In this document: positions 3,177-56,896 of the stretch, piece after piece
Numbering within the stretch: position 1 is the first letter of the stretch
Layout: the number at the start of each line of letters is the position of its first letter
NCBI GenBank assembly: GCA_017505745.1
Contig: JAFVOP010000101.1
Location: 3,680-67,679, forward strand
Direction of reading: 5' to 3'
DNA length: 64,000 bases
From: Clostridia bacterium
GTDB taxonomy: Bacteria > Bacillota > Clostridia > Oscillospirales > CAG-272
Notes under the pieces: model-generated
Database searches by the model: none
What the model saw: only the letters and a program-made list of their open reading frames with translations
Told to the model about the DNA's origin: nothing
Program-made: the position numbers and the translations under genes

Positions 3177-4793
3177 ATGGATTTTCATGAATTCAGTTTG
3201 ATCTATACCGATGCTGATACGAAGAAACGGCATGAAAGCGGAAAATCTCTACCGGATATCGATCGTTTTACCTTACAGGAGCTTGGCCTCTTGGAAATTT
3301 TTGATCTGAAGAGCAATGATCTTGCCTCTTTCTTCACCGTAGAGCCGGAGGTCATGCAATATCGTATGGCAGCGTTTGAGGATATGCTCACCTGTAAGGA
3401 ACTGACGGATATGCTCAACAATCTGGTCCCGGTTCTCAGCGATATCATGGAACTTCGCCGGCTGGAGGCCGATAGCGGAGACACCGATGACTATCTGTCA
3501 AGCATCACCGAGATTGAACTCTACGTTGCCAGCATCCGCGTATTGCAAAATGGATTAAATGGAATTAAGGAGCGCTTGAAAAGTCCTGCCTTTACCGCGC
3601 TTTCTACACTGATTACCGAGCTTGCAGAAAGTGATTATTACCGAGAGCTTAATCAAAAGCTGGAGGAGCTTACCCAACGCGTACGTGAGATCAAAAGCAT
3701 CACGATCGGAGTTAACCTTGATGCACAGCTTCGTCCCGCATCGGCAGGGGTGCTTTCAATTAATTCCGAAGCCTTTAAATCGGGAGACGTTTTAGATAAA
3801 ATTCTCCGTCTCAACTTCAAAAACGACAATTATACCTGTATTGCCAATTTGGTCCCTTTTGGAAAAAAGCAAACCGAGAACCAAAAGCTGGCCATGTCTC
3901 ACGCCTTTAACAGTGCGATCAATGACATTTACAAGTCCTCATTGCGCTCCTGGAAAAAGATTGTACAAACCTATGTATTGGAAAATACCGAGTTTTTGCT
4001 GAATCTGATGCCTGAATTTGAATTTTTGGTGCGCGGTACACAAATGCTCAAGGAGCTTCGTCAAAAAGGATGTGCATTGAGCGTTCCGGACATCCGCCCC
4101 ATGAACGAGCACGCGTTTTCCGCACAAAAGCTTTACAATCCGTGTGTAGCGTTGAAAATCGAAGACCAAATTGTTCCCAACGACCTTGATTTTGATAAGG
4201 ATGCCGCGATCTACGTGCTCACAGGCCCAAACCGCGGCGGAAAATCGGTGATCACCTGTGCGGTTGGATTGGCACAGGTCATGCTTCAGCTGGGAATGTA
4301 TATTCCTGCCGAAGCCTCGAAAATTTCCCCGGTGGATGGGATCTACACGCACTTCCCCACCGGTGCTGAGGACACCATTGATAAGGGACGTCTTGGAGAA
4401 GAATGTGCGCGTTTGGGTGAGATCTTTGACTGTATCACCGCTGACAGCTTGGTATTGTTGGATGAATCTCTCTCGTCCACGGGAAGCTATGAGGCCTCCT
4501 ATATTGCGGCAGAGGTCCTGCGCGGGCTTTCTCACGTGGGGTGCCGTTGTCTCTTCTCCACACACTTGCACGAATTGGCTGCAGAGATCGATCGCTTGAA
4601 CCGCGAATCGCTCGCTGATGGCGGCGTTGCAATCGATACCTTGGTTGCGGGCATCGTTGGTGAAGGCAAGCGCTCCTTCCGCATTACCCGCGCAAAGCCT
4701 GACGGTAAAAGCTATGCACGAGACATTGCCGAGAGCTATGGTCTTACCTATGAAAAGATCCTGCATCGCATCGATGATCCCGAATTCCAATAA
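3177..4793 (+). CDS. MutS-family ATPase paralogue (MutS domain V, no mismatch-binding domain)
   Basis: Walker A LTGPNRGGKSV, Walker B LVLLDESLSST and FSTHLHELA. It is only 538 aa, with a coiled N-terminal region unlike MutS1. Confidence 0.8.
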   Translation: MDFHEFSLIYTDADTKKRHESGKSLPDIDRFTLQELGLLEIFDLKSNDLASFFTVEPEVMQYRMAAFEDMLTCKELTDMLNNLVPVLSDIMELRRLEADSGDTDDYLSSITEIELYVASIRVLQNGLNGIKERLKSPAFTALSTLITELAESDYYRELNQKLEELTQRVREIKSITIGVNLDAQLRPASAGVLSINSEAFKSGDVLDKILRLNFKNDNYTCIANLVPFGKKQTENQKLAMSHAFNSAINDIYKSSLRSWKKIVQTYVLENTEFLLNLMPEFEFLVRGTQMLKELRQKGCALSVPDIRPMNEHAFSAQKLYNPCVALKIEDQIVPNDLDFDKDAAIYVLTGPNRGGKSVITCAVGLAQVMLQLGMYIPAEASKISPVDGIYTHFPTGAEDTIDKGRLGEECARLGEIFDCITADSLVLLDESLSSTGSYEASYIAAEVLRGLSHVGCRCLFSTHLHELAAEIDRLNRESLADGGVAIDTLVAGIVGEGKRSFRITRAKPDGKSYARDIAESYGLTYEKILHRIDDPEFQ

Positions 4794-15373: not shown

Positions 15374-15421
15374 AACGCGCTGTCCTCTGTGCCTGTATGC
15401 AGAGGACAACGCGCTTTTTTA
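15374..15421. terminator. hairpin terminator between convergent genes
   Basis: aacgcgctgtcctctg / cagaggacaacgcgct followed by tttttt. Confidence 0.6.
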
Positions 15422-16126
15422 TCCAACCCCAAGCAACTGACTGACGGTAACCGGCTCAAATCCCATTTCCAACAGCTTGGGAAGCAGAATTTCGAGTGCT
15501 TCGGGAGTTCGGCTGTGTCTGCCAATATAGTCGTGCATAAGAATGATATCGCCCGATTCCACGTTCGACAGCACCGTTTCTACAATCCGCTCGGTTTCCT
15601 TATTCTCCCAATCACGGGTATCCAAGCTCCATAGGATCAATTTATAATCATTGCTTTCACTGCAATGCTCCACATACGTGTTTACCGCTCCCTCGGGAGG
15701 GCGAAACAGGTGCGGGCGATATTCACATAGCTCCTCCAGTGCGTCCTCGCACAGTCCCAACTCCCGCACCACCTCTTCTTCGCTCAACTGCTTTAAGTGA
15801 GAGTGCGAAAAGGTATGATTTCCAACCTCGTGCCCCGCTTGTAACACCGCCCGAGCAGCATCGGGATAGTTGAGGACATTGACCCCCACCATAAAAAACG
15901 TAGCTTTCACGTCATAGGCATCCAAAATATCCAGGATCCGTTGGGTGAGGATCGGATGCGGGCCGTCATCAAACGTAAGTGCGATCTTCATGGAATCGTT
16001 TTTCACCGAGCGGTAAACCTCTCCCTCCGCCATTGTTTCAACTGTTATAAACCGTCCTAAGATGCAGGTTACGAGCATGACGGAAACCAAACGAAGCAGC
16101 GTCTGTCTGAGCCTGTAGCAATGCAT
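15419..16126 (-). CDS. polysaccharide deacetylase (NodB/CE4)
   Basis: ALTFDDGPHP and GNHTFSH. ATG 16126 lies 6 nt after GGGAG and 1 nt after the upstream stop. Confidence 0.85.
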   Translation of the reverse strand: MHCYRLRQTLLRLVSVMLVTCILGRFITVETMAEGEVYRSVKNDSMKIALTFDDGPHPILTQRILDILDAYDVKATFFMVGVNVLNYPDAARAVLQAGHEVGNHTFSHSHLKQLSEEEVVRELGLCEDALEELCEYRPHLFRPPEGAVNTYVEHCSESNDYKLILWSLDTRDWENKETERIVETVLSNVESGDIILMHDYIGRHSRTPEALEILLPKLLEMGFEPVTVSQLLGVG

Positions 16127-16127
16127 A

Positions 16128-16916
16128 TTACGCTCCCGTAAGCTCATCCAAGGTTCCAAAGCGATAGCCCTCGCTTTTCAATGTGCGGATCACATCCTGC
16201 AAAATCGCCGCGTTGGTTGCGGACGTGGGGTGCAGAAGCATCACCTCCCCATTGTGCACGTTTTCCAGAATGATTGACTTAGCTCTCTCCTCGCTCATTT
16301 GTTTGCCGTTGTCCCAATCGGGATAGGCAAAGCTCCAGAATACGGTCTTATAGCCGTTTTTCTCGGTAAAAACAAGGTTTTTTCGACTAAACCGCCCTTC
16401 GGGGGGACGGTAATATTTGGACAATTCCCGTCCTGTAACCTCTTTGTAAAGTGCTTCCAGCTTTTGCAATTCTACCATTAACACGGCATCATCGGCACGG
16501 CTCATATCCCGGTGTGACGCGGTGTGGTTACACACGGTATGCCCCTCCTCTGCCATCCGTATAACCAGCGCAGGTTCCTGTTTTAAAAGATTGCTTAAAA
16601 TAAAGAATGCTCCGGGAACGTCTTCGGCCTTTAAAATGTCCAAAATTTTTGCTACGTTTCCGTTTTCATATCCTGCGTCAAACGTGAGATAGATCACCTT
16701 GTCATCGGCATTGGGATCCGTGTGACGGTGGTCAATATAGTAGCCCCCAAATTCTTCCACAAACGCAAGATCGCTATCCGCACAAGGCTGCAAATGCTCC
16801 TTGACGTGCTTGCAGTACCAGCTGTACCGCTCTTGTTCGGCCGAACACAAAAAAATCAGCATGCTACATATCACAAATCCCGTGATGCATCCGATCCAAA
16901 TTTTTTTCATCTTCAC
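16128..16916 (-). CDS. PdaA-like delta-lactam-biosynthetic de-N-acetylase (NodB/CE4)
   Basis: VIYLTFDAGYENGNVAKILDILK, GAFFILSN and CNHTASHRDM resemble B. subtilis PdaA. A signal/anchor sequence is present. Confidence 0.8.
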   Translation of the reverse strand: MKMKKIWIGCITGFVICSMLIFLCSAEQERYSWYCKHVKEHLQPCADSDLAFVEEFGGYYIDHRHTDPNADDKVIYLTFDAGYENGNVAKILDILKAEDVPGAFFILSNLLKQEPALVIRMAEEGHTVCNHTASHRDMSRADDAVLMVELQKLEALYKEVTGRELSKYYRPPEGRFSRKNLVFTEKNGYKTVFWSFAYPDWDNGKQMSEERAKSIILENVHNGEVMLLHPTSATNAAILQDVIRTLKSEGYRFGTLDELTGA

Positions 16917-33834: not shown

Positions 33835-34227
33835 TGGTGGAGATGAGGAGAATCGAACTCCTGTCCGAAAATCCGTTGATAAGACCTTCTCCGTGGGCAG
33901 TTTGTTATTTAGATTTCCCCGGCAAAATCGCGAACAAACACGCTATCTTTTCAGGTAGCCCTTTTTTGCATGATCGGTTCAAGAGCGAACGGCCGATGCA
34001 TGTTCACCGCTGAAATGACGCTCAGTCCAAGGCCGCGGTACTCCTTGGAGGAACGGGCGACCCGCAGGTCGCGGCACTGCAGAGTTTTACGTCAAAAGAC
34101 GCAAAACTCAGGCAGCCATAGCAACAGTATTGTTGTCGTTTATTTTTTCAGTTGGGCAGTTATCGAGTTTACCCGGCTCGCCACGCTTATCTTACCTCAG
34201 AATCCCCGTCGAAACCATTGCACCCCC
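33835..34227 (-). ncRNA. ssrA: tmRNA (SsrA)
   Basis: 5' end is GGGGGTGCAATGGTTTCGACGGGGATT. The 3' end is GGACAGGAGTTCGATTCTCCTCATCTCCACCA (T-arm plus acceptor). The internal tag frame reads ...AAC GAC AAC AAT ACT GTT GCT ATG GCT GCC TGA (..NDNNTVAMAA*). Confidence 0.9.
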
Positions 34228-34349: not shown

Positions 34350-36557
34350 TCAAGCATCCATCTTGGTCATGTCGCGCTGAGCCATTACAAGTCCGTAATA
34401 AATTCCTTGCTTTTGCATCAACTCCTCATGGGTGCCAATTTCCGCGATACCACCCTTATCCATAACCACCAGCCGCGTTGCGTTTCGAAGCGTAGACAGA
34501 CGGTGGGCAATAGCAATGGTGGTGCGGCCGGCAGAAAGGGCCTGCAGAGCGTCTTGGATCAGCTTTTCAGTCTCGGTATCCAAGGAGGCGGTGGCCTCGT
34601 CCAGAATCAAAATTTTCGGGTTGTGCAGAAGTGCCCGCGCAATGGAGATCCGTTGCCGTTCTCCGCCCGATAGCGTGTATCCCTTTTCTCCAACGTAGGT
34701 GTTGTACCCATCGGGTAACCGAATGATAAACTCATGGGCTCCCGCATGCTTTGCCGCTTGGATCACTTCCTCGGGGGTTGCATCGGGCTTTGCATAGGTC
34801 AAATTTTGCCAAACGGATCCTGTAAACAGAAAATTTTCCTGCAAGACCACGCCCATACGCGCGCGCAACGTTTCTTGCGGAATGTCGCGAATGTCCACCC
34901 CATCGATACGGATCACCCCTTCTTCTACGTCATACATGCGCATGATCAGGTTTATCAAGGTGGATTTCCCAACGCCCGATTTTCCCACCAATCCAATAAA
35001 TTCTCCCGGCTCGATATGGAGAGTAATATCCCGCAATACCTCGTCGGAATCCTCATATCCGAAAGATACGTTTTCAATATCGATCCGTCCTACGATTTCC
35101 TGTCGGATTCCATCGGCCTTATCCGGAACATCCACTGTTTCATCAATGATCTCATAAACGCGAGTTACGGAGGTCATCATTTGCATGAATTGTCGCGGGA
35201 AGGACATCAACGCGTGTAGCGGAGCATAAACCATGGAGGCATAGGAGGAAAACTGCGCCATTTCTCCGGCTGTCATCACACCGTCCAGCATCTTATCTCC
35301 CACATAGTAGAGCAACACAAATTCCCCAATTCCCATCAAAAACTGGAGGCACGGCATAAAGAATGCCCAAAAGCGCTCGAGTCGAAGCTGCGCATCGCGC
35401 TCCTTTGCTGACATTTCCAAAAAGCGTGCTTCTTCGCGTTTTTCCATTCCGTAGGACTTTACCACGCGGATCCCCGAAAAGATATCGTGCAGGATCGCAT
35501 TGGAACGAGAATTCAGCTCCCAACGCTGATGGAACATATTGTTCATAAAACGCCAAAAGACCCGAAATGCAAAGGCTACAAAGGGCGTTGGCAAGAGGAT
35601 CAAGAGCGCCAATCGCCAATCGAAAAAGAGCATGAGTAATCCAATTGCGGCGAGAAGCAGAGATTGCTCCAAAATATTTGGCAATTGACGGATCAAAAAC
35701 TGCTTGATGATGCTCGTATCACTGTTGACGCGCTTCATCAGCTCTCCCGATGTGCGGCGCGAAATCTTAGCAATCGACAGTTGCTGGATCTTTTCAAACA
35801 CCATGTTGCGCAGTCGCACGGTCAGGCGGTTTCCCGACGTTGTCAGAAAGTATCCGCGCAGAACAGTCAATCCGCGGCGCAAAAGCTGGGTCCCCAGCAT
35901 GGCCAGAATCACACCGAGAAAGCCGATCAAAAACGGATTTGCGGTGGTGTTTGTGATATAATCATCGACCAGCACCCGATTGATATACGGATTAAGAAGG
36001 CTGACACCGGTGGTTGCAAAAAACAACACCGCCGCAATGGCCACGTATTTCCATTCACCTTTTGCAAGAGAAAACAGCCGACGGAGAGTCTTCTTTTTTG
36101 AAACACATCGCGGGCAGGTATGGGAGCCACGCGGAAAAGCCTTTCCACACTTGGGACATGTTCTTCCCACCGAAGAAAATCGAGAAAAATCGCAGTCTCC
36201 AAATTTCAGATAATGATTGGCGCGCTTTACTGCCTGTCCGATCGCTGTTTGATAATGGTTATCAGCTCGCGCTAAAAGGATCGCTTCCCCATTCTTTCGC
36301 TCACAGGAAAGAAACACACATCCAACGCCCAACACCGTCTTGAGCTGTGCAATCTCTTCTACGTGCTCTTCTACGGCAAGGCATCCGTCGGTATAGACGC
36401 GGAGGACATCGGTCATGAGCACTACGTAGGACTTCACGCGTTTGGAAGGCTCCTTCAGATCCAGATTCGCATATGTCAGGACAACGGCGTCCTCGCGTTT
36501 CAAGCTGCCGTCAATTGCTTGAAGCTCCTTCCAGAGGCGCGAATTCAGTTTTACCAC
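34350..36557 (-). CDS. ABC exporter, fused permease-ATPase, with N-terminal cytoplasmic domain and zinc ribbon
   Basis: Walker A GKSGVGKST, signature LSGGERQR, Walker B ILILDEATAS, six TM spans, and an N-terminal CPKCGKAFPRGSHTCPRC. GTG start lies 7 nt after AGGAGG. Confidence 0.9.
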   Translation of the reverse strand: MVKLNSRLWKELQAIDGSLKREDAVVLTYANLDLKEPSKRVKSYVVLMTDVLRVYTDGCLAVEEHVEEIAQLKTVLGVGCVFLSCERKNGEAILLARADNHYQTAIGQAVKRANHYLKFGDCDFSRFSSVGRTCPKCGKAFPRGSHTCPRCVSKKKTLRRLFSLAKGEWKYVAIAAVLFFATTGVSLLNPYINRVLVDDYITNTTANPFLIGFLGVILAMLGTQLLRRGLTVLRGYFLTTSGNRLTVRLRNMVFEKIQQLSIAKISRRTSGELMKRVNSDTSIIKQFLIRQLPNILEQSLLLAAIGLLMLFFDWRLALLILLPTPFVAFAFRVFWRFMNNMFHQRWELNSRSNAILHDIFSGIRVVKSYGMEKREEARFLEMSAKERDAQLRLERFWAFFMPCLQFLMGIGEFVLLYYVGDKMLDGVMTAGEMAQFSSYASMVYAPLHALMSFPRQFMQMMTSVTRVYEIIDETVDVPDKADGIRQEIVGRIDIENVSFGYEDSDEVLRDITLHIEPGEFIGLVGKSGVGKSTLINLIMRMYDVEEGVIRIDGVDIRDIPQETLRARMGVVLQENFLFTGSVWQNLTYAKPDATPEEVIQAAKHAGAHEFIIRLPDGYNTYVGEKGYTLSGGERQRISIARALLHNPKILILDEATASLDTETEKLIQDALQALSAGRTTIAIAHRLSTLRNATRLVVMDKGGIAEIGTHEELMQKQGIYYGLVMAQRDMTKMDA

Positions 36558-36569
36558 AGTATCGCCTCC

Positions 36570-37118
36570 TTATAGGTAGAGCTCGATCTTTTTATAGCTC
36601 TTTCGATCTAATTTTTCTACGTCCGGGATCTCAAAGCGGTTGCCGTCCACATCCGAGAGAATCAGCCGATTTTCCTGGGCGCGAAAAATACTGCGAAAGG
36701 TATCGTGCAACGTAAAATTCAACGTTCCCTCAGCAGTTCGCACCTTCCAATAGGAAAATCCGTAGCGCTCCTTGACCTGAATGATCTCTTCGATCACCGG
36801 CGCAAAGTACCGCCGCTTCAGTTCAGTCTCCAAAAGCTCTCTTTGCTCACCTGCAAACAGATCGGTACGGCGAACAATGCCGATCTCCTGTTGATTTTCG
36901 TCCAAAACCGATATGAATTCCCATAACATCTCAAGCGGAAACTGGCGGCATAAAAATGCGCGGGAATCCTGCTCCTGATGGCGAACGTAAAGGAAGCCGT
37001 TTTTTTGATAAAACGAAGCATTTTCAGGCGTCAACCAAACCGTAACCGACAATTCCGCAAGCGTACGGTTCTTTTTTGATTCTGCTTTTTCTTCATCCGT
37101 GATATGTAACTCTTTCAT
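36570..37118 (-). CDS. DUF1854-like ABC-transporter-associated protein
   Basis: About 182 aa and soluble: ..FLCRQFPLEM..ISVLDENQQEIGIV..LL..ELKRRYFAPVIEEI..WKVRTAEG..ILSDVDGNRFEIPDVEKLD. The family call is from memory. The SD for the next gene lies within its last codons. Confidence 0.7.
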   Translation of the reverse strand: MKELHITDEEKAESKKNRTLAELSVTVWLTPENASFYQKNGFLYVRHQEQDSRAFLCRQFPLEMLWEFISVLDENQQEIGIVRRTDLFAGEQRELLETELKRRYFAPVIEEIIQVKERYGFSYWKVRTAEGTLNFTLHDTFRSIFRAQENRLILSDVDGNRFEIPDVEKLDRKSYKKIELYL

Positions 37119-37138
37119 CACTTCATCCTCACAATTCT

Positions 37139-39439
37139 TTACTCGCGAATCCCTGCATTCCGCAAGGCCTCGTCCTGAAGGGTGAATAGCTTTTTATAAA
37201 CGCCGTCTTCAATGGCAAGAAGCGCTTTATGACTTCCCCGTTCCACAACCTTTCCGCGCTCGATCACAATCAATTCGTCAGCATCCCGCAAGGTAGAAAG
37301 ACGGTGCGCGATCATAATCGTGGTCTTTCCTTGGATCAGCCTCGAAAGTGCCTCTTGAATCTTGCGCTCGGTACCGGTATCCATTGCGGCAGTGGCTTCG
37401 TCCAAAATCAGAATTTTTGGATTTTTCAGAATGGCACGCGCAATCGAGATGCGCTGCCGCTCTCCGCCGGAAAGGTCCTTGTATCCAAATCCGATACGCG
37501 TATCGTAGGCATCGGGAAGCTTCATGATAAATTCATGCGCTCCCGCACGTTTGGAGGCTTGTACCACCTCTTCAAAGGTCGCATCCGGGCATGCATAACG
37601 AATATTGTCCAAAACGGTTCCCATGAAAAGATAGGTTTCTTGCGAAACGATCGCAATATTTTGATAAATGGAAGATAGCGCCAGATCGCGGATCGGATAT
37701 CCCCCGATGCGGATCTCTCCCTCCTCCACGTCATACATGCGCATCAAAAGATTGGCAAGCGTGCTTTTGCCGGCACCGGTATGTCCCACAATGCCGAGGA
37801 TTTTTCCGTCCGGCACCTCAAAGCTGACATCATTGATAATCTTTTTTCCCTTTTGATAAGAAAAGGAAACGTGATCAAACTCCACAGAGCCCCCCAGCAC
37901 CTCGGGACGCTCTGGATTCTCCTTTTCACTTATCTCGGGTTGCGCATCCATGATCTCAAACATACGCTGCAGCGCGTTGGAGCAATCAGCGGTCCAATCA
38001 AAGAAATCGGTAAAAAATCCAAGCGGATCAAACACCATGTTCATGTAGGAAATAAAGGTGAGAAGCATACCGTAGGTCAATCCGTGGTACCCCGTCATCA
38101 CCATCCATCCTCCAAGTCCCCATGCAACAATGTTACCAAGATACAGCAGGATTCCCGCAACCGGCCATGCATAATTGGTAAACAGAGCCAACTTTTTTTC
38201 ACTTTTGGCTAACCGTTGGTTCCGATCTGAAAAGCGCTCGATCTCCGCGTGCTCCTTGGAAAAGGCCTTCACAACACGGATGCCGGAAAACACGTCGGAA
38301 AGCAAGGAATTGAGCCGTCGGGAATTGGAATACCGCTTTGCATGAAGCATTCGTTCCTTTCGGAAAAAACGTCCGAGCAAAAGCATAAAAAGCGGAACCG
38401 GAATTAATGCAAAAATAGCCAACACGGGCTCAATACAGAGTAAGAGAATAACCAACACGATCACCTGTACCAGATTGACGATCAAATACGGCAGGCCGTC
38501 ACAGAAAAAGTGATAAATGGTATTGGCATCTTCATTGACCTGTGTCATCAGTCCGCCGGTCTGTCTGCCGGTAAAAAAGCCAAGAGATAACCGTTCAATA
38601 GCAGTAAAAATCGTTTTTTTCAGATCGTACACGATCTTTGCGGCCACGTTGGACGTAATGTAAGAATTGAGGATGGTTGCAAGGAGTCGGAGAACACGTG
38701 TGGCAATGATCAATCCCAGCACCGTTAAAATCTGCCCTGCAAATTCCCCGGTTCCGTTGATGACTTCGTCATAGAAAAATCCGCTGGACAGATACGGTGC
38801 TAAAATGCTGAACGCAGTCAGCAAAACCAGCGACAAAACGGTGAGGATCAAATGCCCGCGGTAACGCGAGAAAAACGAGAAAAAGCGCCAAAAAAGCTTC
38901 CCTTTTTCCATACAGCGAGGGCAAACCCGACGGTTCATATCGGGATAGCGCATTCCGCATTTTGGACAACGCTTGGAAGCGGGATCATCCTTCGGGTCGA
39001 TTTCAAGCGCTTCCCCCTTTGCAATCTTTTCCGCGTATTTTGCAAACAAAAAGACGGAAGCTTTGCAGAAGTTGGTAAAAGCGCATAGAAGGATTGGCTC
39101 TTTGGTGTCCCCGTGCTTGGCAATCAAGCGTCCGGAGGACAACAGCTCCTCCACGCGAAATCCGTGAAGCTCGGAAATCGGATACTCCTCCAAGAAAATC
39201 TCCCGAAATTCTTGAGTAAAAGACGGTGTGGTCTGTCTCTTCGAGGCAGATGCACAGGAGGCCACAGTGACACCGGAGAGGACCCATAAGGTGTCCTTTG
39301 AGGCAATCAAATAAACTTGCGCCGGTAAAAGCTCTCGGTCGCGATCACAAAACGCCGATAGAAGAATCTCTTCGTACGAGATCCCCTTTGATGTAAGGTA
39401 TGTAATTACGGAATTCGGGATTGGATCGATCTCAAACAC
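37139..39439 (-). CDS. ABC exporter, fused permease-ATPase, with N-terminal cytoplasmic domain and zinc ribbon
   Basis: Walker A GHTGAGKST, LSGGERQR, ILILDEATAA, and an N-terminal CPKCGMRYPDMNRRVCPRC. The likely start is GTG 39439, 7 nt after AGGAGG (the track start is TTG 39472). Confidence 0.9.
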   Translation of the reverse strand: MFEIDPIPNSVITYLTSKGISYEEILLSAFCDRDRELLPAQVYLIASKDTLWVLSGVTVASCASASKRQTTPSFTQEFREIFLEEYPISELHGFRVEELLSSGRLIAKHGDTKEPILLCAFTNFCKASVFLFAKYAEKIAKGEALEIDPKDDPASKRCPKCGMRYPDMNRRVCPRCMEKGKLFWRFFSFFSRYRGHLILTVLSLVLLTAFSILAPYLSSGFFYDEVINGTGEFAGQILTVLGLIIATRVLRLLATILNSYITSNVAAKIVYDLKKTIFTAIERLSLGFFTGRQTGGLMTQVNEDANTIYHFFCDGLPYLIVNLVQVIVLVILLLCIEPVLAIFALIPVPLFMLLLGRFFRKERMLHAKRYSNSRRLNSLLSDVFSGIRVVKAFSKEHAEIERFSDRNQRLAKSEKKLALFTNYAWPVAGILLYLGNIVAWGLGGWMVMTGYHGLTYGMLLTFISYMNMVFDPLGFFTDFFDWTADCSNALQRMFEIMDAQPEISEKENPERPEVLGGSVEFDHVSFSYQKGKKIINDVSFEVPDGKILGIVGHTGAGKSTLANLLMRMYDVEEGEIRIGGYPIRDLALSSIYQNIAIVSQETYLFMGTVLDNIRYACPDATFEEVVQASKRAGAHEFIMKLPDAYDTRIGFGYKDLSGGERQRISIARAILKNPKILILDEATAAMDTGTERKIQEALSRLIQGKTTIMIAHRLSTLRDADELIVIERGKVVERGSHKALLAIEDGVYKKLFTLQDEALRNAGIRE

Positions 39440-39517
39440 GGGTGATCCTCCTCTCAAGCATTCTGAATACAATGCCGAACCGGCTGTCTATGTACCCTCG
39501 TGAGAGAGGGCTCCAAC

Positions 39518-39724
39518 TTAGCGGTTGGAATTGCGATTTTGATTGTTATTCTGATTGTTGTTTTGATTGTTGTTCTGGTTATTGTTCTGGTTATTGTTCT
39601 GATTGTTGTTTTGATTGTTGTTCTGGTTATTGTTCTGATTGTTATTCTGATTATTGTTTTGGTTATAATTCTGATTGCGAGCTTGATTGTTGTTCTTGTT
39701 TTGATTTTGATTGTTATTTTGCAT
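39518..39724 (-). CDS. 68-aa Asn/Gln repeat micro-protein, (NNNQ)x10 core
   Basis: ATG 39724 sits 9 nt after AAGGAGAG. 60 of 68 residues are N or Q. All inter-repeat DNA differences are synonymous in this frame. The ORF is co-directional with, and 78 nt upstream of, the ABC gene. Confidence 0.6.
   Translation of the reverse strand: MQNNNQNQNKNNNQARNQNYNQNNNQNNNQNNNQNNNQNNNQNNNQNNNQNNNQNNNQNNNQNRNSNR
39521..39715. repeat. imperfect 12-nt tandem repeat (gttctgattgtt-type units on the + strand)
   Basis: The period-12 pattern is visible directly, and all three forward and reverse co-phased frames are open. Variation is restricted to att/gtt and ctg/ttg. Confidence 0.85.
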
Positions 39725-39777
39725 GACGGAATACTCTCCTTTTTGTAATAAGAATTACAAAAGCAGTATGCACAACG

Positions 39778-40113
39778 TCAAATATTTTTATTCGTCCCAT
39801 CGGACTCGTAACGAAAACAAATTTCAGATTTCAGCTCATAGAGTGCCGAATAAAATAGCATGATAGCAACGAAAGACAGTGCCAGAGAGATCAACCACAA
39901 CCAATCCAATTGCAACCGCCACAAGGATTCCACTGCTGCCAGCAAACATGCAACGGTAAAAAACGCAAACGGCAATTGGAAGCGCGTGGCAAATTTTCGA
40001 TGTAAACGCTTGGAGGCCATTTGAGAGAGTGACTCTGCATGAAGATCTCCGTATTCCACTCCGGTGTGTACACAGGCAATTCGATAAAGCGAATAGAGCA
40101 AAAGAGCGATCAA
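39778..40113 (-). CDS. small membrane protein, unknown function (TTG start overlapping upstream stop; uncertain)
   Basis: 111-aa ORF with 2-3 hydrophobic spans. TTGA overlaps the 376-aa gene, and no SD is present. It could be a frameshifted tail of the upstream gene. Confidence 0.4.
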   Translation of the reverse strand: MIALLLYSLYRIACVHTGVEYGDLHAESLSQMASKRLHRKFATRFQLPFAFFTVACLLAAVESLWRLQLDWLWLISLALSFVAIMLFYSALYELKSEICFRYESDGTNKNI

Positions 40114-41240
40114 CAGCGGGTTGCAATTGCCTCCGCCGCTCCAAGGAAACGAATCAAAAGAAACTGATCGTATGCCTTTCCGTTATACAACGATGCCTCG
40201 GGCTCAAAGCGGCGCAGATAGGAAGCATTCAAGAAGAGCTCCAAGCCACTGATTCCGGTTAGCAATGCGCAAGCACCGTAGCAAAGACGGCGAGTAAAAG
40301 CACGCGGTCCAAGCGGTCCAAGCAAAAGAATTGCAAGAAACGCCAACAGGGCAAGCACCGCCCCCGGCAACGCCGAGTAATGATTGATGCGAAGAGTAGC
40401 CGCAAACACGATTGCAAATTGCAACAAATAGAAGGAGCGAGAAAATTTGCGAACGGTCAGCATACCGATCTGCGGAAGAATCTCCTCTTCATATCGGGTT
40501 TCCAGATGTTCGATCCATGCGGTTTCTTTTCGCAAGCATCGTAAAAAGGAAACCAGTCGAACGATCCATACTACTGCCAAAAGCACCGTAGCAAGTGCGC
40601 AAAGCAAGCGTAACACGCCAATGTACGAATAGCGATCTACCGTTTGGGAAGGTGAGGTCAAAACGTCTGAATACCAAAGATCCCCAAACCCGGGGGTTCC
40701 GTTGGCGCCCTGTCCATCCAAGGAAGAAAACCCGGAGAGCTCCGGTAAAAAAGACAGTATGGAAGCAGTAACCAGAAACAGGCGCGTCAGGCTTGCCATT
40801 CGCTGCATCCGATTCTTCCCTTTTTTCAAATCAATGAGTGAGGAGACCGATAGGCGTTCCGCCAGATACTCCAGCCCCGAAAAAAGATTGCGAAATGCGG
40901 GCAACAGAATAAACCATTGCACCAGCATCATAACAAAGGCGCCCATCATCACAAAGGAACGCAACTCATATGTATTCGTGGCTTGGGAGCGAATGACTCC
41001 ATAAGCAAAATACGAAAGAAAAAGCTGTAGCACGCTCAAAACAGAAAGAATACGAAAGCGTCGAACCGCCTCAAATATACGTCCGTTCAGATCGGCCAGG
41101 CGATAAAAGCTCATGCAAAGCAGCCAATATGCCAAACAGTTCGGAAGAACGTCCACAAAGCCTACAACGGGATTGCATAAAATGAGTCCGGAAATGAATA
41201 GAAGACCAAACCCGGTTTTGATTTTTATGCCATTCTTCAT
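40110..41240 (-). CDS. polytopic membrane protein, unknown function
   Basis: 376 aa with about 9 hydrophobic spans and a central loop ..SSLDGQGANGTPGFGDLWYSD... ATGA overlap with the upstream gene. Confidence 0.6.
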   Translation of the reverse strand: MKNGIKIKTGFGLLFISGLILCNPVVGFVDVLPNCLAYWLLCMSFYRLADLNGRIFEAVRRFRILSVLSVLQLFLSYFAYGVIRSQATNTYELRSFVMMGAFVMMLVQWFILLPAFRNLFSGLEYLAERLSVSSLIDLKKGKNRMQRMASLTRLFLVTASILSFLPELSGFSSLDGQGANGTPGFGDLWYSDVLTSPSQTVDRYSYIGVLRLLCALATVLLAVVWIVRLVSFLRCLRKETAWIEHLETRYEEEILPQIGMLTVRKFSRSFYLLQFAIVFAATLRINHYSALPGAVLALLAFLAILLLGPLGPRAFTRRLCYGACALLTGISGLELFLNASYLRRFEPEASLYNGKAYDQFLLIRFLGAAEAIATRC

Positions 41241-45016: not shown

Positions 45017-45532
45017 ATGAAAGCGATTATGAAATCGATCAACATTGTGCTTCACGAGCCGGAAATTCCGCAAAACACGGGAAATATTGCGCGCACCTGT
45101 GCTGCAACGGGAGCCGCCCTTCATTTGATCCGCCCGCTGGGCTTTGCCATTGATGACCGAAAGCTTAAGCGTGCGGGACTCGATTACTGGCATCATCTCG
45201 ATATCACCTATTATGACGGTCTGGATGACTTTTACGCCAAGCATCCCGAGGCAAAGGTGTACTATTTCACCACCAAGGCCAAGCATGTTTATACGGAAAT
45301 TGCCTACCCCGATCCCGTATTTATCATGTTTGGAAAAGAAACCAAAGGGCTTCCCGAGGATCTCTTACACAAGCATCCGGACACCTGCGTACGTCTGCCT
45401 ATGCGAGACGGTCTACGCTCACTGAATCTCTCCAACACCGTAGCAATTGCCGTTTATGAGATCTTACGCCAAGGAAATTTTGAAGGCTTGAAGGCTGCGG
45501 GCGAATTGACACAATTCTCTTGGGATATCTGA
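45017..45532 (+). CDS. trmL: tRNA (cytidine/uridine-34 2'-O)-methyltransferase TrmL (SPOUT)
   Basis: INIVLHEPEIPQNTGNIARTCAATGAALHLIRPLGF and LNLSNTVAIAVYE. The alternative start is 45029. Confidence 0.85.
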   Translation: MKAIMKSINIVLHEPEIPQNTGNIARTCAATGAALHLIRPLGFAIDDRKLKRAGLDYWHHLDITYYDGLDDFYAKHPEAKVYYFTTKAKHVYTEIAYPDPVFIMFGKETKGLPEDLLHKHPDTCVRLPMRDGLRSLNLSNTVAIAVYEILRQGNFEGLKAAGELTQFSWDI

Positions 45533-45548
45533 GAAAGGGACGAAACCA

Positions 45549-46598
45549 TTGAAGAACGAAAAAATACTGGTTGCGATGAGCGGCGGCATAGACAGCAGCG
45601 TGGCGGCATTTTTGCTCAAAGAACAAGGCTTTGATTGTACGGGAGTGATGATGCACCTGTTCTCTTCCGAAACACCGTCCGATGCCTGTGGATCCAAAGA
45701 TGCCGAAAAGATCGCAGAGCAGATTGGAATTCCCTTTGAAATTTGCGATTATTCCTCGGAATTCGAGCGACACGTCATCGATTATTTTATTCAAACCTAT
45801 ATAAAGGGAGGCACCCCAAACCCCTGTGTGGAATGCAATCGCACCATGAAATTCGGAAAGCTTTACGAGGTAGCGCTCCGATACGGATGTGAGAAAATAG
45901 CCACCGGTCATTATGCCAATATTACACGGGATACAAACGGCCGTTATCTGCTCTCTGCCGCATCGGATGACAGTAAAGATCAGACCTATGTGTTATGGTC
46001 ACTTTCACAGGATCAACTCTCCCGAACGATCTTCCCTCTCGGTGGACTTCGAAAAAGCGAGATCCGTGAAATTGCGCTGGAACAGGGATTTTGCAACGCC
46101 AATCGACGTGACAGTCAGGATATCTGTTTCATTCCCGACGGCGATTACGTCTCTTTTATTGAAACACATACCAACATACCCTTCCCGTGTGGAAATTTTG
46201 TTGATCGAAACGGAAGAATTCTCGGCAAGCATCAAGGATTGATCCGATATACCGTCGGACAACGGAAGGGGTTGGGGATCGCGTTTGGAAAACCGACTTA
46301 CGTATGTGGCAAGGATGCCGTCACCAATACCGTAATTTTGGGAGATAACGAGGATCTCTTTCAGAAAGAGCTTACCGCTCATTCCGTGAATCTGATTGCA
46401 ACCGAACAGATCGATCACCCGATTCACGTACAAGCAAAGATTCGGTATTCAGCGAAAGCAGCTTCCGCGATAGTAGAACAAACCGATACCGACACCCTTC
46501 GTGTTCGCTTTGACGAGCCGCAACGCGCGATCTGTAAAGGGCAATCTCTGGTAATGTATGATGGAAATCTTGTGATCGGCGGCGGCATTATTGATTGA
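45549..46598 (+). CDS. mnmA: tRNA 2-thiouridine(34) synthase MnmA
   Basis: PP-loop VAMSGGIDSSVAA, plus NPCVECN and ATGHYA. TTG start. Confidence 0.9.
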   Translation: MKNEKILVAMSGGIDSSVAAFLLKEQGFDCTGVMMHLFSSETPSDACGSKDAEKIAEQIGIPFEICDYSSEFERHVIDYFIQTYIKGGTPNPCVECNRTMKFGKLYEVALRYGCEKIATGHYANITRDTNGRYLLSAASDDSKDQTYVLWSLSQDQLSRTIFPLGGLRKSEIREIALEQGFCNANRRDSQDICFIPDGDYVSFIETHTNIPFPCGNFVDRNGRILGKHQGLIRYTVGQRKGLGIAFGKPTYVCGKDAVTNTVILGDNEDLFQKELTAHSVNLIATEQIDHPIHVQAKIRYSAKAASAIVEQTDTDTLRVRFDEPQRAICKGQSLVMYDGNLVIGGGIID

Positions 46599-47345: not shown

Positions 47346-48824
47346 TTATAACAAGATACAGATCAAGCCGTTGCTTCCCTCGTTGATGATTCGTTCCAGC
47401 GTTTCGGAAAGCTTTTGGCGCGATTCATCGGGCATATGATCCAGCTTGGTGTGCAGTCCTTCATTTACCAGATCATATAGCGATTTTCCAAACAAATTGG
47501 ATGCCCAGATACTCTTGGGATCTTCCTCAAACTCGCGAAGCATATAGCGCACCAGATCCTCGGATTGCTGTTCGGTGCCCACGATGGGATTGATCTCGGT
47601 CTCAATGTTGGCACGGATCATATGGATCGACTGGGCTGCCGCGCGCAGCTTCACCCCGTACCCGCCCGCTTGCTTGACGATCTTAGGCTCTTCCAGATGC
47701 AGATCCTCCACATCGGGCATCACAATTCCGTATCCGTTTGCATTTACCTCCTCCAAAGCCTCTGCAACTCGGTCATATTTCGCTTTTGTCTCTGCAAGTG
47801 AGCGCAAAAGAGCAATCAATTCCCGCTCTCCTGTTACCTCCAGGCCCGTCAGCTCGCTGATCACCTCATAATAAAGTCCCTCTTTCATTGTCAGCGTGAT
47901 CTGCGCCTTTCCGGTGCCCAGCTCCAAAAGATCGGTTGTCATTCTTTCCACATACTCGTTTTCACACATGGGCTCGAATGCATTTTTTACGTCGCCGATC
48001 TTACACACACGCTCAGCGCACTGACGGAGCGAGGAACCGATCGACGTGCGGATCCGATGGGTCTCATCAAGCGCATTCATCCATTCGGGCATCCGTACCG
48101 TAACCTCGGTAACCGGAAATTCCTCCAATACAAGGCCTAAAATATGACGGATATCCTCAGCATCCAGATCCAGACAGCTGACCAATGCCACGGGAACCTT
48201 GTATTTTTCCTCCAATTCATAGGCTAACGTGCGTGCCGATTCGGACGCGGGAACCGAAGAGTTGAGAATAATTGCAAACGGCTTTCCAATCTCCTTGAGC
48301 TCGCGAACGATACGTTCCTCGGCTTCGACATAAGATTCCCGACCGATCTCGCTGATCGTACCGTCATTGGTTACCAGCATCCCGATGGTGGAGTGCTCGG
48401 TGATCACCTTGTGTGTTCCCATTTCAGCCGCTTCCACAAAGGGCATTGCTTCCTCGCGCCAAGGTGTACGAACCATACGCGGTTGGCCGTTTTCAAACGC
48501 GCCCATGGCCTCGGGGATCAAATATCCCACACAGTCGATCATGCGCACCCGCATTTGCGCATGATTGTCCAAAACGATCGGAACCGCCTCTTCGGGGATG
48601 AATTTCGGTTCGGTCGTCATTACCGTCTTCCCCGCGGCCGATTGCGGCAATTCGTCCCGTGCGCGGTCACGGGAGTAACCCTCTTCCATATTTGGAAGAA
48701 CAACAGACTCCATAAACCGCTTGATAAAAGTGGATTTTCCGCTGCGGACCGGCCCCACTACGCCAACGTAAATATCCCCGCCTGTCCGCTCGGCAATGTC
48801 TTTGTAAATTGATTGTTCAGGCAT
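47346..48824 (-). CDS. spoIVA: stage IV sporulation protein A
   Basis: SIYKDIAERTGGDIYVGVVGPVRSGKSTFIKRFME and full-length similarity to SpoIVA (492 aa). Confidence 0.95.
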   Translation of the reverse strand: MPEQSIYKDIAERTGGDIYVGVVGPVRSGKSTFIKRFMESVVLPNMEEGYSRDRARDELPQSAAGKTVMTTEPKFIPEEAVPIVLDNHAQMRVRMIDCVGYLIPEAMGAFENGQPRMVRTPWREEAMPFVEAAEMGTHKVITEHSTIGMLVTNDGTISEIGRESYVEAEERIVRELKEIGKPFAIILNSSVPASESARTLAYELEEKYKVPVALVSCLDLDAEDIRHILGLVLEEFPVTEVTVRMPEWMNALDETHRIRTSIGSSLRQCAERVCKIGDVKNAFEPMCENEYVERMTTDLLELGTGKAQITLTMKEGLYYEVISELTGLEVTGERELIALLRSLAETKAKYDRVAEALEEVNANGYGIVMPDVEDLHLEEPKIVKQAGGYGVKLRAAAQSIHMIRANIETEINPIVGTEQQSEDLVRYMLREFEEDPKSIWASNLFGKSLYDLVNEGLHTKLDHMPDESRQKLSETLERIINEGSNGLICILL

Positions 48825-56272: not shown

Positions 56273-56896
56273 TCAAACAAATTTTTTTGCTTGAATTCGA
56301 GCTTTTATGAATCTAATAACTAAATAAAAATATATTGCAAGATGATAGAAACCAAATCCAACAAATGAAGCAATACAAATCAATATCTTTAAGGGTAATT
56401 TCATATCTTTTCTTTTATGTATCTTCAGCGAAAAGAAGATTCCCAATATAACACATGAAATTTCATATAACATCGCAGGCAAAAAGAATACAACAAACCA
56501 TGTTTCACCATAATTCAGTCCTTGCATGAAATCATTGGGAATCATTCCAATTAAAATAATCCAAGCAAAAAAAGCAAACAACGGAATCAAAGTAAGCGAG
56601 AATCTTGCGAATAAAGCTCGCTCAGCTTTATAATCAATATTATGATTGAATGATTTTCTATTTTGAGCTGTTGAAGATAGCTCCCCCTTCAATAGTTCAT
56701 CAACGGTAATTTCCAATACTTCCGCTAATTTTAGCAACAAAGCGGTGTCGGGATAGCCTCTGCCAGTTTCCCATCGACTCACCGCTTTATTTGTTACCCC
56801 CAATATCAAACCCAACTCACTTTGGCTCATGCCTTTTTCCAATCTCAATGTTGCGATTAAATTACCAACTTTGTAAATATGGTTCAAATCATACAT
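56273..56896 (-). CDS. XRE-family HTH regulator fused to a 4-TM membrane domain
   Basis: LRLEKGMSQSELGLILGVTNKAVSRWETGRGYPD followed by four hydrophobic spans. The gene is strongly AT-rich. ATG 56896 follows GGGAGGTG. Confidence 0.8.
   Translation of the reverse strand: MYDLNHIYKVGNLIATLRLEKGMSQSELGLILGVTNKAVSRWETGRGYPDTALLLKLAEVLEITVDELLKGELSSTAQNRKSFNHNIDYKAERALFARFSLTLIPLFAFFAWIILIGMIPNDFMQGLNYGETWFVVFFLPAMLYEISCVILGIFFSLKIHKRKDMKLPLKILICIASFVGFGFYHLAIYFYLVIRFIKARIQAKKFV

Follow-up and report, generated by a model that had tools for sequence, protein, structure and literature searches.

In the 64,000-nt stretch of Clostridia bacterium DNA analyzed here (contig JAFVOP010000101.1, positions 3,680 to 67,679; hereafter the window), a 68-codon open reading frame (ORF) made up almost entirely of Asn and Gln codons lies immediately upstream of an operon for ATP-binding cassette (ABC) exporter proteins. 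We find that this N/Q ORF is a genuine protein-coding gene, overlooked by current annotation, and that its frame is under selection at the amino acid level. The observation is real and beyond chance, with like ORFs recurring in more than 45 independent loci. Promoter, ribosome-binding site, ORF and 3' hairpin form a conserved module, and this module is separable from the exporter genes. As to its role, we tentatively infer, with somewhat less than even confidence, an independently transcribed gene for a small hydrophilic protein that would be made in sporulation, reside in the spore and act there in much the way of the small, acid-soluble proteins of spores (SASPs). The module in the window comprises the following elements.

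39765..39793, minus strand: promoter-like motif GAATA-N18-CATACT (-35 at 39793-39789, -10 at 39770-39765), putatively of forespore (sigma-G/F-like) type
39744..39759, minus strand: inverted repeat uGUAAU-ucuu-AUUACa in the 5' untranslated region (5'-UTR), at the predicted 5' end of the transcript (RNAfold, -3.2 kcal/mol)
39734..39741, minus strand: Shine–Dalgarno (SD) element AAGGAGAG, 9 nt 5' of the ATG
39518..39724, minus strand: N/Q-rich ORF, 68 codons plus TAA, with 44 Asn, 16 Gln and an (NNNQ)x10 core
39494..39511, minus strand: 3' GC-rich hairpin GCCCUC-ucucac-GAGGGU, 6 bp, -10 kcal/mol, 6 nt past the stop codon and lacking a U-tract
39489..39494, minus strand: UACAU(A), directly 3' of the hairpin, here UACAUA

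Read on the minus strand, the ORF runs from ATG (39724-39722) to TAA (39520-39518) and encodes MQNNNQNQNKNNNQARNQNYNQ(NNNQ)x10NRNSNR, in which Asn and Gln account for 60 of 68 residues. The product is extremely hydrophilic, mildly basic and presumably disordered. It contains no Gly-Gly-type leader, no Cys and no signal peptide, as an earlier, preliminary description of the locus had stated. That description was also correct on the start codon, the SD and its distance, the stop codon, the total of 60 Asn and Gln, and the 78-nt spacer from the stop to the GTG of the first ABC gene (39439-39437). It overlooked the promoter-like motif, the 5'-UTR inverted repeat, the 3' GC hairpin with its UACAUA, and mirror ORFs on the opposite strand.

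At the DNA level, Tandem Repeats Finder reported a period-12 array of 14.7 copies (39540-39715). Among the ten 12-nt units of the core, all four third-position columns (3, 6, 9 and 12) are polymorphic, compared with none of the other eight. The differences are AAT/AAC and CAA/CAG only, which upholds the earlier claim that every change between units is synonymous. Codon choice in the ORF (52% AAC, 50% CAG) matches that in the long ORFs of the window (52% and 52%), so synonymous sites look equilibrated, with the amino acids fixed.

For comparison, we aligned homologues of the DUF1854 protein encoded in the adjacent operon, for which a search gave 883, and fetched 80 related loci (L001–L080) from species-representative genomes. 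All 80 come from gut or rumen metagenome-assembled genomes (MAGs) labelled Oscillospiraceae, Eubacteriales or Clostridia. Thirty-five loci of the closer clade (L001–L042) had enough upstream DNA to test, and 33 of these carry an N/Q-rich ORF on the operon strand, immediately 5' of the first ABC gene. Whether the ORF recurs at related DUF1854 loci, a question raised in the preliminary description, is thus answered for the closer clade. All 38 distant loci (L043–L080) lack it. We also scanned metagenome contigs for an SD, ATG-CAR-AAY and ten N/Q/K/H codons, ignoring context; this gave 18 contigs, 15 of them genuine, with ORFs of 35–64 aa. The 33 clade orthologues are 44–74 aa long and mostly about 80% N/Q, and the overall size range is 35–76 aa. 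The repeat unit differs by species (NNNQ, NNQ, NQNNQ, NNQQ or NNAQ). Across orthologues the SD, the ATG and the first residues, MQN, are kept while the repeats vary. Pooled, the orthologues are 51% N, 28% Q, 5.6% K and 3.8% R, with hydrophobic residues below 2%.

Codon usage in these orthologues shows which level is constrained. Asn codons (AAY) number 942 against 102 Lys codons (AAR), and Gln codons (CAR) number 510 against about 4 His codons (CAY). A satellite, or an RNA of the ARN type, would leave the third position free; the bias therefore points to selection on amino acids. Close relatives tell the same story. Four contigs ∼98% identical to the window encode a 56-aa version with 7 rather than 10 NNNQ units. 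The difference is an in-frame indel of 36 nt, a multiple of both 3 and 12; every substitution within the ORF is synonymous, and the stop codon is TGA instead of TAA. These data bear out the earlier proposal of protein-level selection on the N/Q frame. Orthologues keep the ORF, substitutions in relatives favor its frame, and these checks, named beforehand, did not refute a gene.

Three orthologous loci deserve separate mention. In L011 (2682-2879, plus strand) the usual stop codon is lost, and translation runs on for 16 codons, through the hairpin. In L042 (4303-4542, plus strand) a run of N, either an assembly gap or a mask, falls within the repeat. L034 (4444-4590, plus strand) encodes a diverged 48-aa version, only ∼35% N/Q and rich in K, E, D and S, with promoter, hairpin and TACAT kept.

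Co-phased ORFs rich in Ile, Val and Leu lie opposite the N/Q ORFs. They are open solely because NAN codons read as NTN (Ile, Val, Leu or Phe) on the other strand. Among the 33 loci their frame, start codon, length and ends all vary, and none has an SD, which rules out the antisense ORF as a real gene. Nor did any conserved antisense ORF with start and SD, such as a type I toxin (a small hydrophobic peptide) would need, appear in these loci. Public gene calls nonetheless pick the antisense ORF in L081 (5269-5538, minus strand), L102 (5494-5667, minus strand) and L104 (3485-3658, minus strand), versus the N/Q ORF in L103 (5518-5688, plus strand) and L105 (2329-2499, plus strand). Repeats of NAN codons can be expected to produce such a mirror ORF as an artefact, and databases may be contaminated with fake hydrophobic peptides derived from it. 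The choices made by gene callers, together with the resemblance of AAN triplets to ARN repeats, are what could be said for a locus that encodes no N/Q protein at all, being instead a satellite DNA, the source of an A/C-rich RNA such as a sponge of ARN repeats, or the site of an antisense Ile/Val/Leu ORF. Given third positions confined to AAY and CAR, a conserved SD, ATG and stop, and indels that stay in frame, we find this scarcely credible.

Database searches were in line with the earlier remark that the peptide belongs to no described family. Pfam and NCBIfam scans of the 68-aa product returned no family at E ≤ 0.01, a result to be read knowing that composition-bias correction may hide weak profile similarity. 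A homology search with the peptide gave 4717 word-sharing candidates, none of which scored, because the same correction blinds HMMER to the N/Q peptide. Exact look-ups of 21 N/Q peptides, one of them predicted by a gene caller, found 0 in a collection of 15 billion proteins. At gathering thresholds, Rfam matched only a transfer-messenger RNA (tmRNA) in the whole window and nothing at the N/Q locus; a permissive scan of 39300-39950 gave a single chance snoRNA match (E 0.63).

We next describe the sequence upstream of the ORF, whose alignment gives the consensus G[ACT]ATA(AA)-N17/18-(G)CATA[CA]T. The window and 30 of 32 loci have the pattern G[ACT]AT[AG]-N17/18-CATA[AC]T at 63–83 nt 5' of the N/Q ATG. 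Elsewhere it is rare, with 18 other matches in 796 kb, or about 1 per 44 kb. Relaxing the first base of the -10 to C, A or G brings the motif to all 42 loci tested, metagenome and exporter-less loci included; the form G[ACT]ATA-N17/18-CATA[CA]T, which could also be of sigma-E type, is kept in 41 of 43. The -35 overlaps the last codons of the upstream membrane-protein gene. Its second base varies between A, C and T, changing the encoded residue among Asn, His and Tyr, which indicates that the constraint is on the DNA and not on the upstream protein. No sigma-70-like promoter was found in 39000-40400, so the motif at the N/Q ORF is not a sigma-A promoter. The sole other match to the pattern in the window (56486-56514, plus strand; GAATACAACAAACCATGTTTCACCATAAT) has no close plus-strand ORF and is probably due to chance.

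In B. subtilis, the sigma-G consensus is GHATR-N17/18-CATXHTA, and ssp genes have TGAATA/CATACTA. The -35 forms of the N/Q motif, GTATAAA, GAATAAA and GCATAAA, can be found letter for letter in C. difficile among the mapped sigma-F/G promoters, those of spoIIQ, spoIIR, dacF and a SASP gene included (PMC3789822, Table S6). Judged by its motif, the N/Q promoter best fits the forespore sigma-G/F type, and its expression would depend on these factors.

Mother-cell promoters share the -10 CATA and -35 ATA elements. The N/Q gene could thus be driven by sigma-E/K and encode a GerG-like component of the cortex or coat, gel-forming or cross-linkable through Gln and Lys by a transglutaminase-type enzyme. 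GerG of C. difficile is induced in sporulation under sigma-E control; it is ∼30% Asn, with Met, Pro, Ser and Gly, and has low-complexity Asn-rich repeats whose number varies between strains and which drive the formation of a gel in vitro (PMC5241399). The protein is confined to C. difficile, and its repeats are dispensable for its known function (PMC5241399). Like GerG, the N/Q protein is Asn-rich with a repeat number that differs between strains; moreover, its many Gln residues are paired with a few Lys. But GerG is larger, whereas the N/Q protein is essentially all repeats. We consider a mother-cell role unlikely. The invariant G two bases before the ATA, and the A/C/T degeneracy that follows it, fit the forespore -35 (GHATR) better. 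The window also offers a comparison in spoIVA, whose promoter region has a different -35 and a -10 of CATATAGT. No transglutaminase gene was seen near the N/Q ORF. The region upstream of a pdaA-like gene in the window was not clear enough to calibrate a forespore promoter.

Between promoter and ORF, the leader often starts with a hairpin. Such a 5'-proximal hairpin was found in 28 of 42 loci, so it is not universal, and its arms differ between lineages (GUAAUU/AAUUAC, GAAAUCC/GGAUUUC, UCCGC/GCGGA, UGCCA/UGGCA and CCCC/GGGG). An A-rich stretch follows, and then the SD. In nearly all orthologues the start region reads AAAGGAG, 8–11 nt, and ATG-CAR-AAY (MQN).

The 3' side of the ORF is more uniform. 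A GC hairpin of 6–10 bp was present in 33 of 33 aligned loci, beginning 4–18 nt past the N/Q stop, with predicted stabilities of -10 to -22 kcal/mol and compensatory changes in its arms. TACAT follows in every one (TACATA in 28, TACATC in 5). When both strands of ∼1.15 Mb were searched for a hairpin plus TACAT, 42 sites were found, all 3' of an N/Q ORF. The element therefore belongs to the N/Q gene, and a generic terminator or processing element is ruled out. We also rejected the idea that TACATA serves a promoter of the first ABC gene (ABC1) as its -10 box: there is no conserved -35 at the right distance, since the hairpin arms covary instead, and in L041 the predicted start would follow the SD. 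No hairpin-plus-U-tract terminator was found in 39000-40400, in keeping with the earlier statement that none convincing separates the ORF from the ABC gene, and hairpins of the exporter-linked clade never carry a U-tract.

UACAU(A) resembles a site for the toxin RNase MazF (EndoA/NdoA). In B. subtilis the strict cut site is U^ACAUA, with UACAUC a weak off-target (bioRxiv 10.64898/2026.08.06.743204). The N/Q loci share these sequences (UACAUA in 28 of 33, UACAUC in 5 of 33), and the motif lies invariantly in RNA predicted to be single-stranded directly 3' of the hairpin, as expected of a MazF-processed transcript. Cleavage there is a prediction, and the window ORFs that were scanned included no MazF/PemK. 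The window shows no depletion of TACATA that might be taken for a sign of MazF (17 observed versus 17.3 expected). Canonical terminators are distributed in a roughly complementary way. Two loci (L086, L096) have a terminator without the motif, terminator-less loci have the motif, one (L098) has both, and two (L090, L092) have neither. This pattern suggests a role for UACAU in forming the 3' end of the small mRNA, which we regard as a lead only.

The relationship of the ORF to the exporter can be judged from gene order. In the window, the flanking genes are these.

39778..41240, minus strand: gene for a helical membrane protein, lying upstream of the N/Q ORF and broken here into ORFs of 376 aa (41240..40110) and 111 aa (40113..39778)
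37139..39439, minus strand: ABC1, ABC exporter half-transporter (Pfam ABC_membrane and ABC_tran), start GTG 39439, SD GAGAGGAGG at 39455-39447
36570..37121, minus strand: DUF1854 protein (PF08909, E 7e-35; NF052234, 81.7 bits versus a cut-off of 150)
34350..36557, minus strand: ABC2, second ABC exporter half-transporter, 735 aa (ABC_membrane and ABC_tran; NF052233, 552 bits versus 880)

Pfam thus confirmed the ABC-DUF1854-ABC operon that had been described 3' of the ORF. ABC1 is a 777-aa ORF, or 766 aa from the GTG, and across loci its spacer from the N/Q stop is 41–150 nt.

SecA and two membrane-protein genes (251–274 aa and 487 aa) precede the N/Q ORF wherever the flank is available, and the 487-aa gene, directly 5', is its only constant neighbor. 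What lies 3' varies. Of the 15 metagenome contigs, six have an ABC gene after the N/Q ORF and the others do not. In L086 and L096 a canonical terminator, made up of a stem and a U-tract, comes after the ORF; beyond it are a sigma-A-like promoter, TTGACA...TACCATAAT, and a gene for the S-component of an energy-coupling factor (ECF) transporter. The next gene in L092, L094 and L098 encodes a UvrD/PcrA helicase, with a canonical terminator directly 3' of the ORF in L098 as in L086 and L096, and L091 has yet another gene. The hairpin-UACAU element accompanies the ORF in L094, before the helicase gene, and in L091. The opposite case is seen in L038 and L040, where SecA and the membrane genes lead straight into ABC1, the N/Q ORF being absent and the membrane gene ending 25–40 nt short of the ABC1 SD. 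Upstream genes in the 38 distant ABC-DUF1854-ABC loci are unrelated. In L018 (∼4590-4640, plus strand) and L022 (∼4570-4620, plus strand), an insertion between hairpin-UACAU and ABC1 contains a sigma-A-like promoter (TTGACT-17-TACAAT with an upstream TG, and TTGACA-18-TATGAT, respectively). ORF without exporter and exporter without ORF both occur, and the two are therefore separable in both directions. As part of the spore-protein reading, and with the same reserve of slightly less than even confidence, we take the position of the ORF 5' of ABC-DUF1854-ABC to reflect a gene order inherited in one clade, not a functional dependence.

Three explanations that do tie the ORF to a neighbor were weighed against these data. 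The first, which had been put forward in the preliminary description, makes the ORF a translational sensor or coupler: translation sensitive to the supply of Asn/Gln-tRNA would control the operon, with the terminating ribosome opening an arm that masks the ABC1 SD. BmrB, a leader ORF that controls the heterodimeric ABC exporter BmrCD in B. subtilis, is a precedent. As there and in classical attenuators, a small ORF sits directly 5' of a heterodimeric ABC exporter with structured RNA between, in a clade that has no terminator at this place and with a hairpin close behind the stop codon. The C-rich 5' arm of that hairpin can instead pair with the ABC1 SD in the window and some loci; in the minimum-energy fold of the window spacer, CCCUCUCUCA is base-paired to the SD, and in 20 of 30 loci most of the SD region is paired. 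Yet this complementarity is absent from others, such as L041 and L016, and is thus not conserved, and at the ORF end there is a single hairpin, not a terminator/antiterminator pair. At 44–74 codons the ORF is lengthy for a leader; it is also extreme in composition and served by a conserved promoter of its own. Where a leader peptide has a constant regulated gene, the N/Q ORF precedes ABC1, a UvrD/PcrA helicase, an ECF S-component or another gene, or else a terminator with a separate promoter. Even within the clade, ABC1 has a sigma-A-like promoter of its own in two loci and does without the ORF in two more. A sensor therefore finds no support as a general explanation, and we think it quite unlikely to be the answer, although the SD pairing leaves translational coupling conceivable within the exporter-linked clade.

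In the second explanation, also raised earlier, the peptide is cargo, a ribosomally made amino acid polymer exported by the DUF1854-type ABC system as a matrix, amyloid or spore-envelope component. Export of a cyanophycin-like amino acid polymer has been proposed for DUF1854/ABC systems (bioRxiv 10.1101/072470). The best NCBIfam match of ABC1, as of ABC2, is NF052233, 'cyanophycin metabolism-associated ABC transporter', and the ORF–exporter junction is tight, conserved and terminator-less in 33 species-level loci. But the ABC1 score is 490 bits against a cut-off of 880, and all operon proteins fall below the curated cut-offs of the cyanophycin-associated models NF052233 and NF052234, whereas the Pfam threshold for DUF1854 is reached. 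Of those window ORFs that were scanned, none was a cyanophycin synthetase; MurE alone matches that model weakly. The DUF1854 protein had no match among PDB sequences. The peptide lacks a signal or leader, and the exporters contain ABC_membrane and ABC_tran only, with no peptidase domain. With the absence of Cys and of modification genes in the block, this also sets the locus apart from ribosomally synthesized and post-translationally modified peptides (RiPPs) and bacteriocins. The hairpin-UACAU junction recurs before genes unrelated to the exporter. ORF and exporter are found apart both ways, so the cargo idea is not supported as a general explanation, and we judge it very unlikely.

Third, the peptide could be a partner or substrate of the invariant upstream membrane proteins, handled or anchored by them, for example. 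Wherever the flank is long enough, those genes are found ahead of the ORF, exporter-less loci included. However, the whole block is syntenic with secA, and the adjacency may be inherited. The ORF has a separate promoter, and L038 and L040 keep the membrane genes without it. The 487-aa protein offers no hint of function: it matched no Pfam or NCBIfam family, and its AlphaFold model (pLDDT 77) found no fold match in the PDB at E < 0.1. We rate such a partnership as improbable, on a par with the sensor.

Comparison with known small proteins shows where the N/Q product does find counterparts. The gamma-type SASP of Bacillales, SspE, is small, hydrophilic, repetitive and Gln/Asn-rich, is expressed from a forespore promoter, and is thought to serve as an amino acid reserve only, broken down at germination. 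The N/Q protein shares the small, hydrophilic, repetitive and N/Q-rich build, and its promoter is putatively of the same kind. It differs in having no sequence or Pfam similarity to SspE, no GPR motif, a more extreme composition (∼80% N+Q) and carriers in Clostridia, a class in which no gamma-type SASP is known. Minor SASPs of Bacillus (SspH–SspP, Tlp) are hydrophilic proteins of 34–70 aa, with few functions known, whose monocistronic genes each have a sigma-G-type promoter and end in a 3' hairpin. The N/Q proteins resemble them in size (35–76 aa, within the limit of about 80 aa), hydrophilicity, K+R content (9%) and the 3' hairpin, but are not homologous, and in one clade the hairpin, lacking a U-tract, leads into the exporter operon. 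Another resemblance is to Q/N-rich prion-like or polar-zipper sequences (Sup35 GNNQQNY, the prion domain of bacterial Rho). The composition predicts strong self-association by way of ladders of amide hydrogen bonds, and NNQQNN and QNYNQ are among the motifs of the N/Q peptides. This likeness is one of composition only; the N/Q protein stands alone, with interspersed Lys and Arg, and is not a domain of a larger protein. On these comparisons, the N/Q product is not a member of any SASP family or of a leader-peptide, RiPP/bacteriocin or type I toxin system. Its gene is built in the manner of those for minor or gamma-type SASPs, and in composition it resembles the GerG repeats.

The spore-protein reading builds on this likeness. 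Small size, a hydrophilic product, a sporulation-type promoter of its own and hairpins at the ends together give the architecture of ssp genes. The window contains spoIVA (47346-48824, minus strand; E 1e-205, above the curated cut-off), with a canonical terminator 5' of it, and tandem PdaB-like and PdaA-like polysaccharide deacetylase genes (15419-16916, minus strand), so the organism can sporulate or descends from spore-formers. SASPs are small and abundant, are controlled by sigma-F/G and are degraded at germination for their amino acids (PMC7649253). We therefore prefer, of the three options offered in the preliminary description, the disordered spore-associated protein, best supported by the sporulation-type promoter and SpoIVA; cargo and sensor lack general support. 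The N/Q gene would be an expression unit in its own right. After a sporulation-type promoter it has a short leader that often begins with a hairpin, next a strong ribosome-binding site for the ORF, and at the 3' end a stable hairpin leading into either a U-tract (terminator) or UACAU(A). Hairpins at both ends are what would be expected of a stable, abundant small mRNA. The protein, small and SASP-like, would be made in sporulation and then kept in store within the spore. Its likeliest role would be that of an amino acid and amide-nitrogen reserve for outgrowth, or of a water-binding, gel-forming filler. With about two nitrogen atoms per residue it could be an efficient store, and its composition predicts strong hydrogen-bonded self-association, as a gel or polar zipper.

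Several observations weigh against this reading. All carriers are MAGs. Similarity to SASP families is lacking in Pfam and NCBIfam, profiles for SASPs of alpha/beta and gamma type gave no match at E ≤ 0.01 and no SASP motif was visible by eye. The N/Q peptides are nearly free of E, F, I, A and S, and hold no cleavage motif of the GPR type (E-[FI]-A-S-E). In the promoter, the A expected at the last -10 position for sigma-G is not conserved, and sigma-E-type promoters (ATA-N17-CATA...T) look similar. A tblastn search of the sequences examined gave no alpha/beta SASP gene against which forespore promoters could be calibrated. Within the exporter-linked clade the 3' hairpin comes without a U-tract, and most loci have no evident ABC1 promoter, making co-transcription with the exporter likely there, and read-through transcripts from the SecA side would carry the ORF in vegetative cells too. 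Finally, the sole invariant neighbor is an uncharacterized membrane protein, and a functional tie to it is possible. For these reasons we put the case for a new, non-homologous kind of small spore-type protein as a tentative preference, just short of an even chance; the finding itself is real and undescribed.

One elaboration would apply to the exporter-linked clade. A forespore-type promoter would drive peptide and exporter as one transcript, and the junction, with its SD-masking hairpin and MazF-type UACAUA, would set their ratio. The exporter would then move the peptide out of the forespore, as a ribosomal counterpart of a cyanophycin-like polymer, to form a polar-zipper gel or amyloid in the spore envelope. 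We regard this as highly improbable. About four times as likely is a milder version, in which the spore core would retain the peptide, either to store amide nitrogen or as a filler that forms a glass, in the role of a gamma-type SASP.

Other features of the window were noted. The split of the upstream membrane-protein gene is a 1-nt frame shift at 40110-40113 (minus strand), seen as one gap in a blastn alignment of the window with L102. The gene is intact in ∼98% identical strains (P0121 and L102–L105), the P0121 protein being 487 aa long and 99% identical; the split reflects a 1-nt mistake of sequencing or assembly, or else a newly arisen pseudogene. ABC1 and ABC2 both have an N-terminal cytoplasmic extension of ∼150–190 aa with a CxxC...CxxC zinc-ribbon-like motif, covered by NF052233. 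Directly 5' of the operon in five of the distant loci (L058, L064, L066, L070 and L076; ∼4130-4720, plus strand), a MarR-like regulator was called by eye. Such a neighbor would suit a role in regulated efflux for the distant exporters. Directly 3' of ABC2 is the tmRNA (33835-34227, minus strand; Rfam, 161 bits), with the tag DNNTVAMAA; its adjacency to the operon is not syntenic in the relative L081 and was treated as coincidence. TrmL and MnmA genes (45017-46598, plus strand) lie divergently beside secA. As s2U34 synthase, MnmA acts on tRNA-Gln, -Lys and -Glu, and these tRNAs read many of the codons in the N/Q ORF. The placement of the two genes is probably coincidental as well.

If our conclusions are correct, many gut and rumen Oscillospiraceae carry a conserved small protein invisible to standard pipelines, because gene callers often take the mirror hydrophobic ORF and HMM (hidden Markov model) searches discard low complexity. 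It would be the most extreme Asn/Gln protein known under purifying selection in bacteria. Should the gene-specific hairpin-UACAUA junction be cut, it would illustrate cleanly how a MazF-type site can serve to form a 3' end. The locus also corrects a case of guilt by association: adjacency to a DUF1854 exporter does not imply shared function. For the biology of these organisms, the N/Q protein would be a candidate for filling, in Clostridia, the functional place of small spore proteins of the storage type, and a simple natural system for the role of poly-N/Q in a dehydrated cell, whether as nitrogen store, gel, glass or amyloid.

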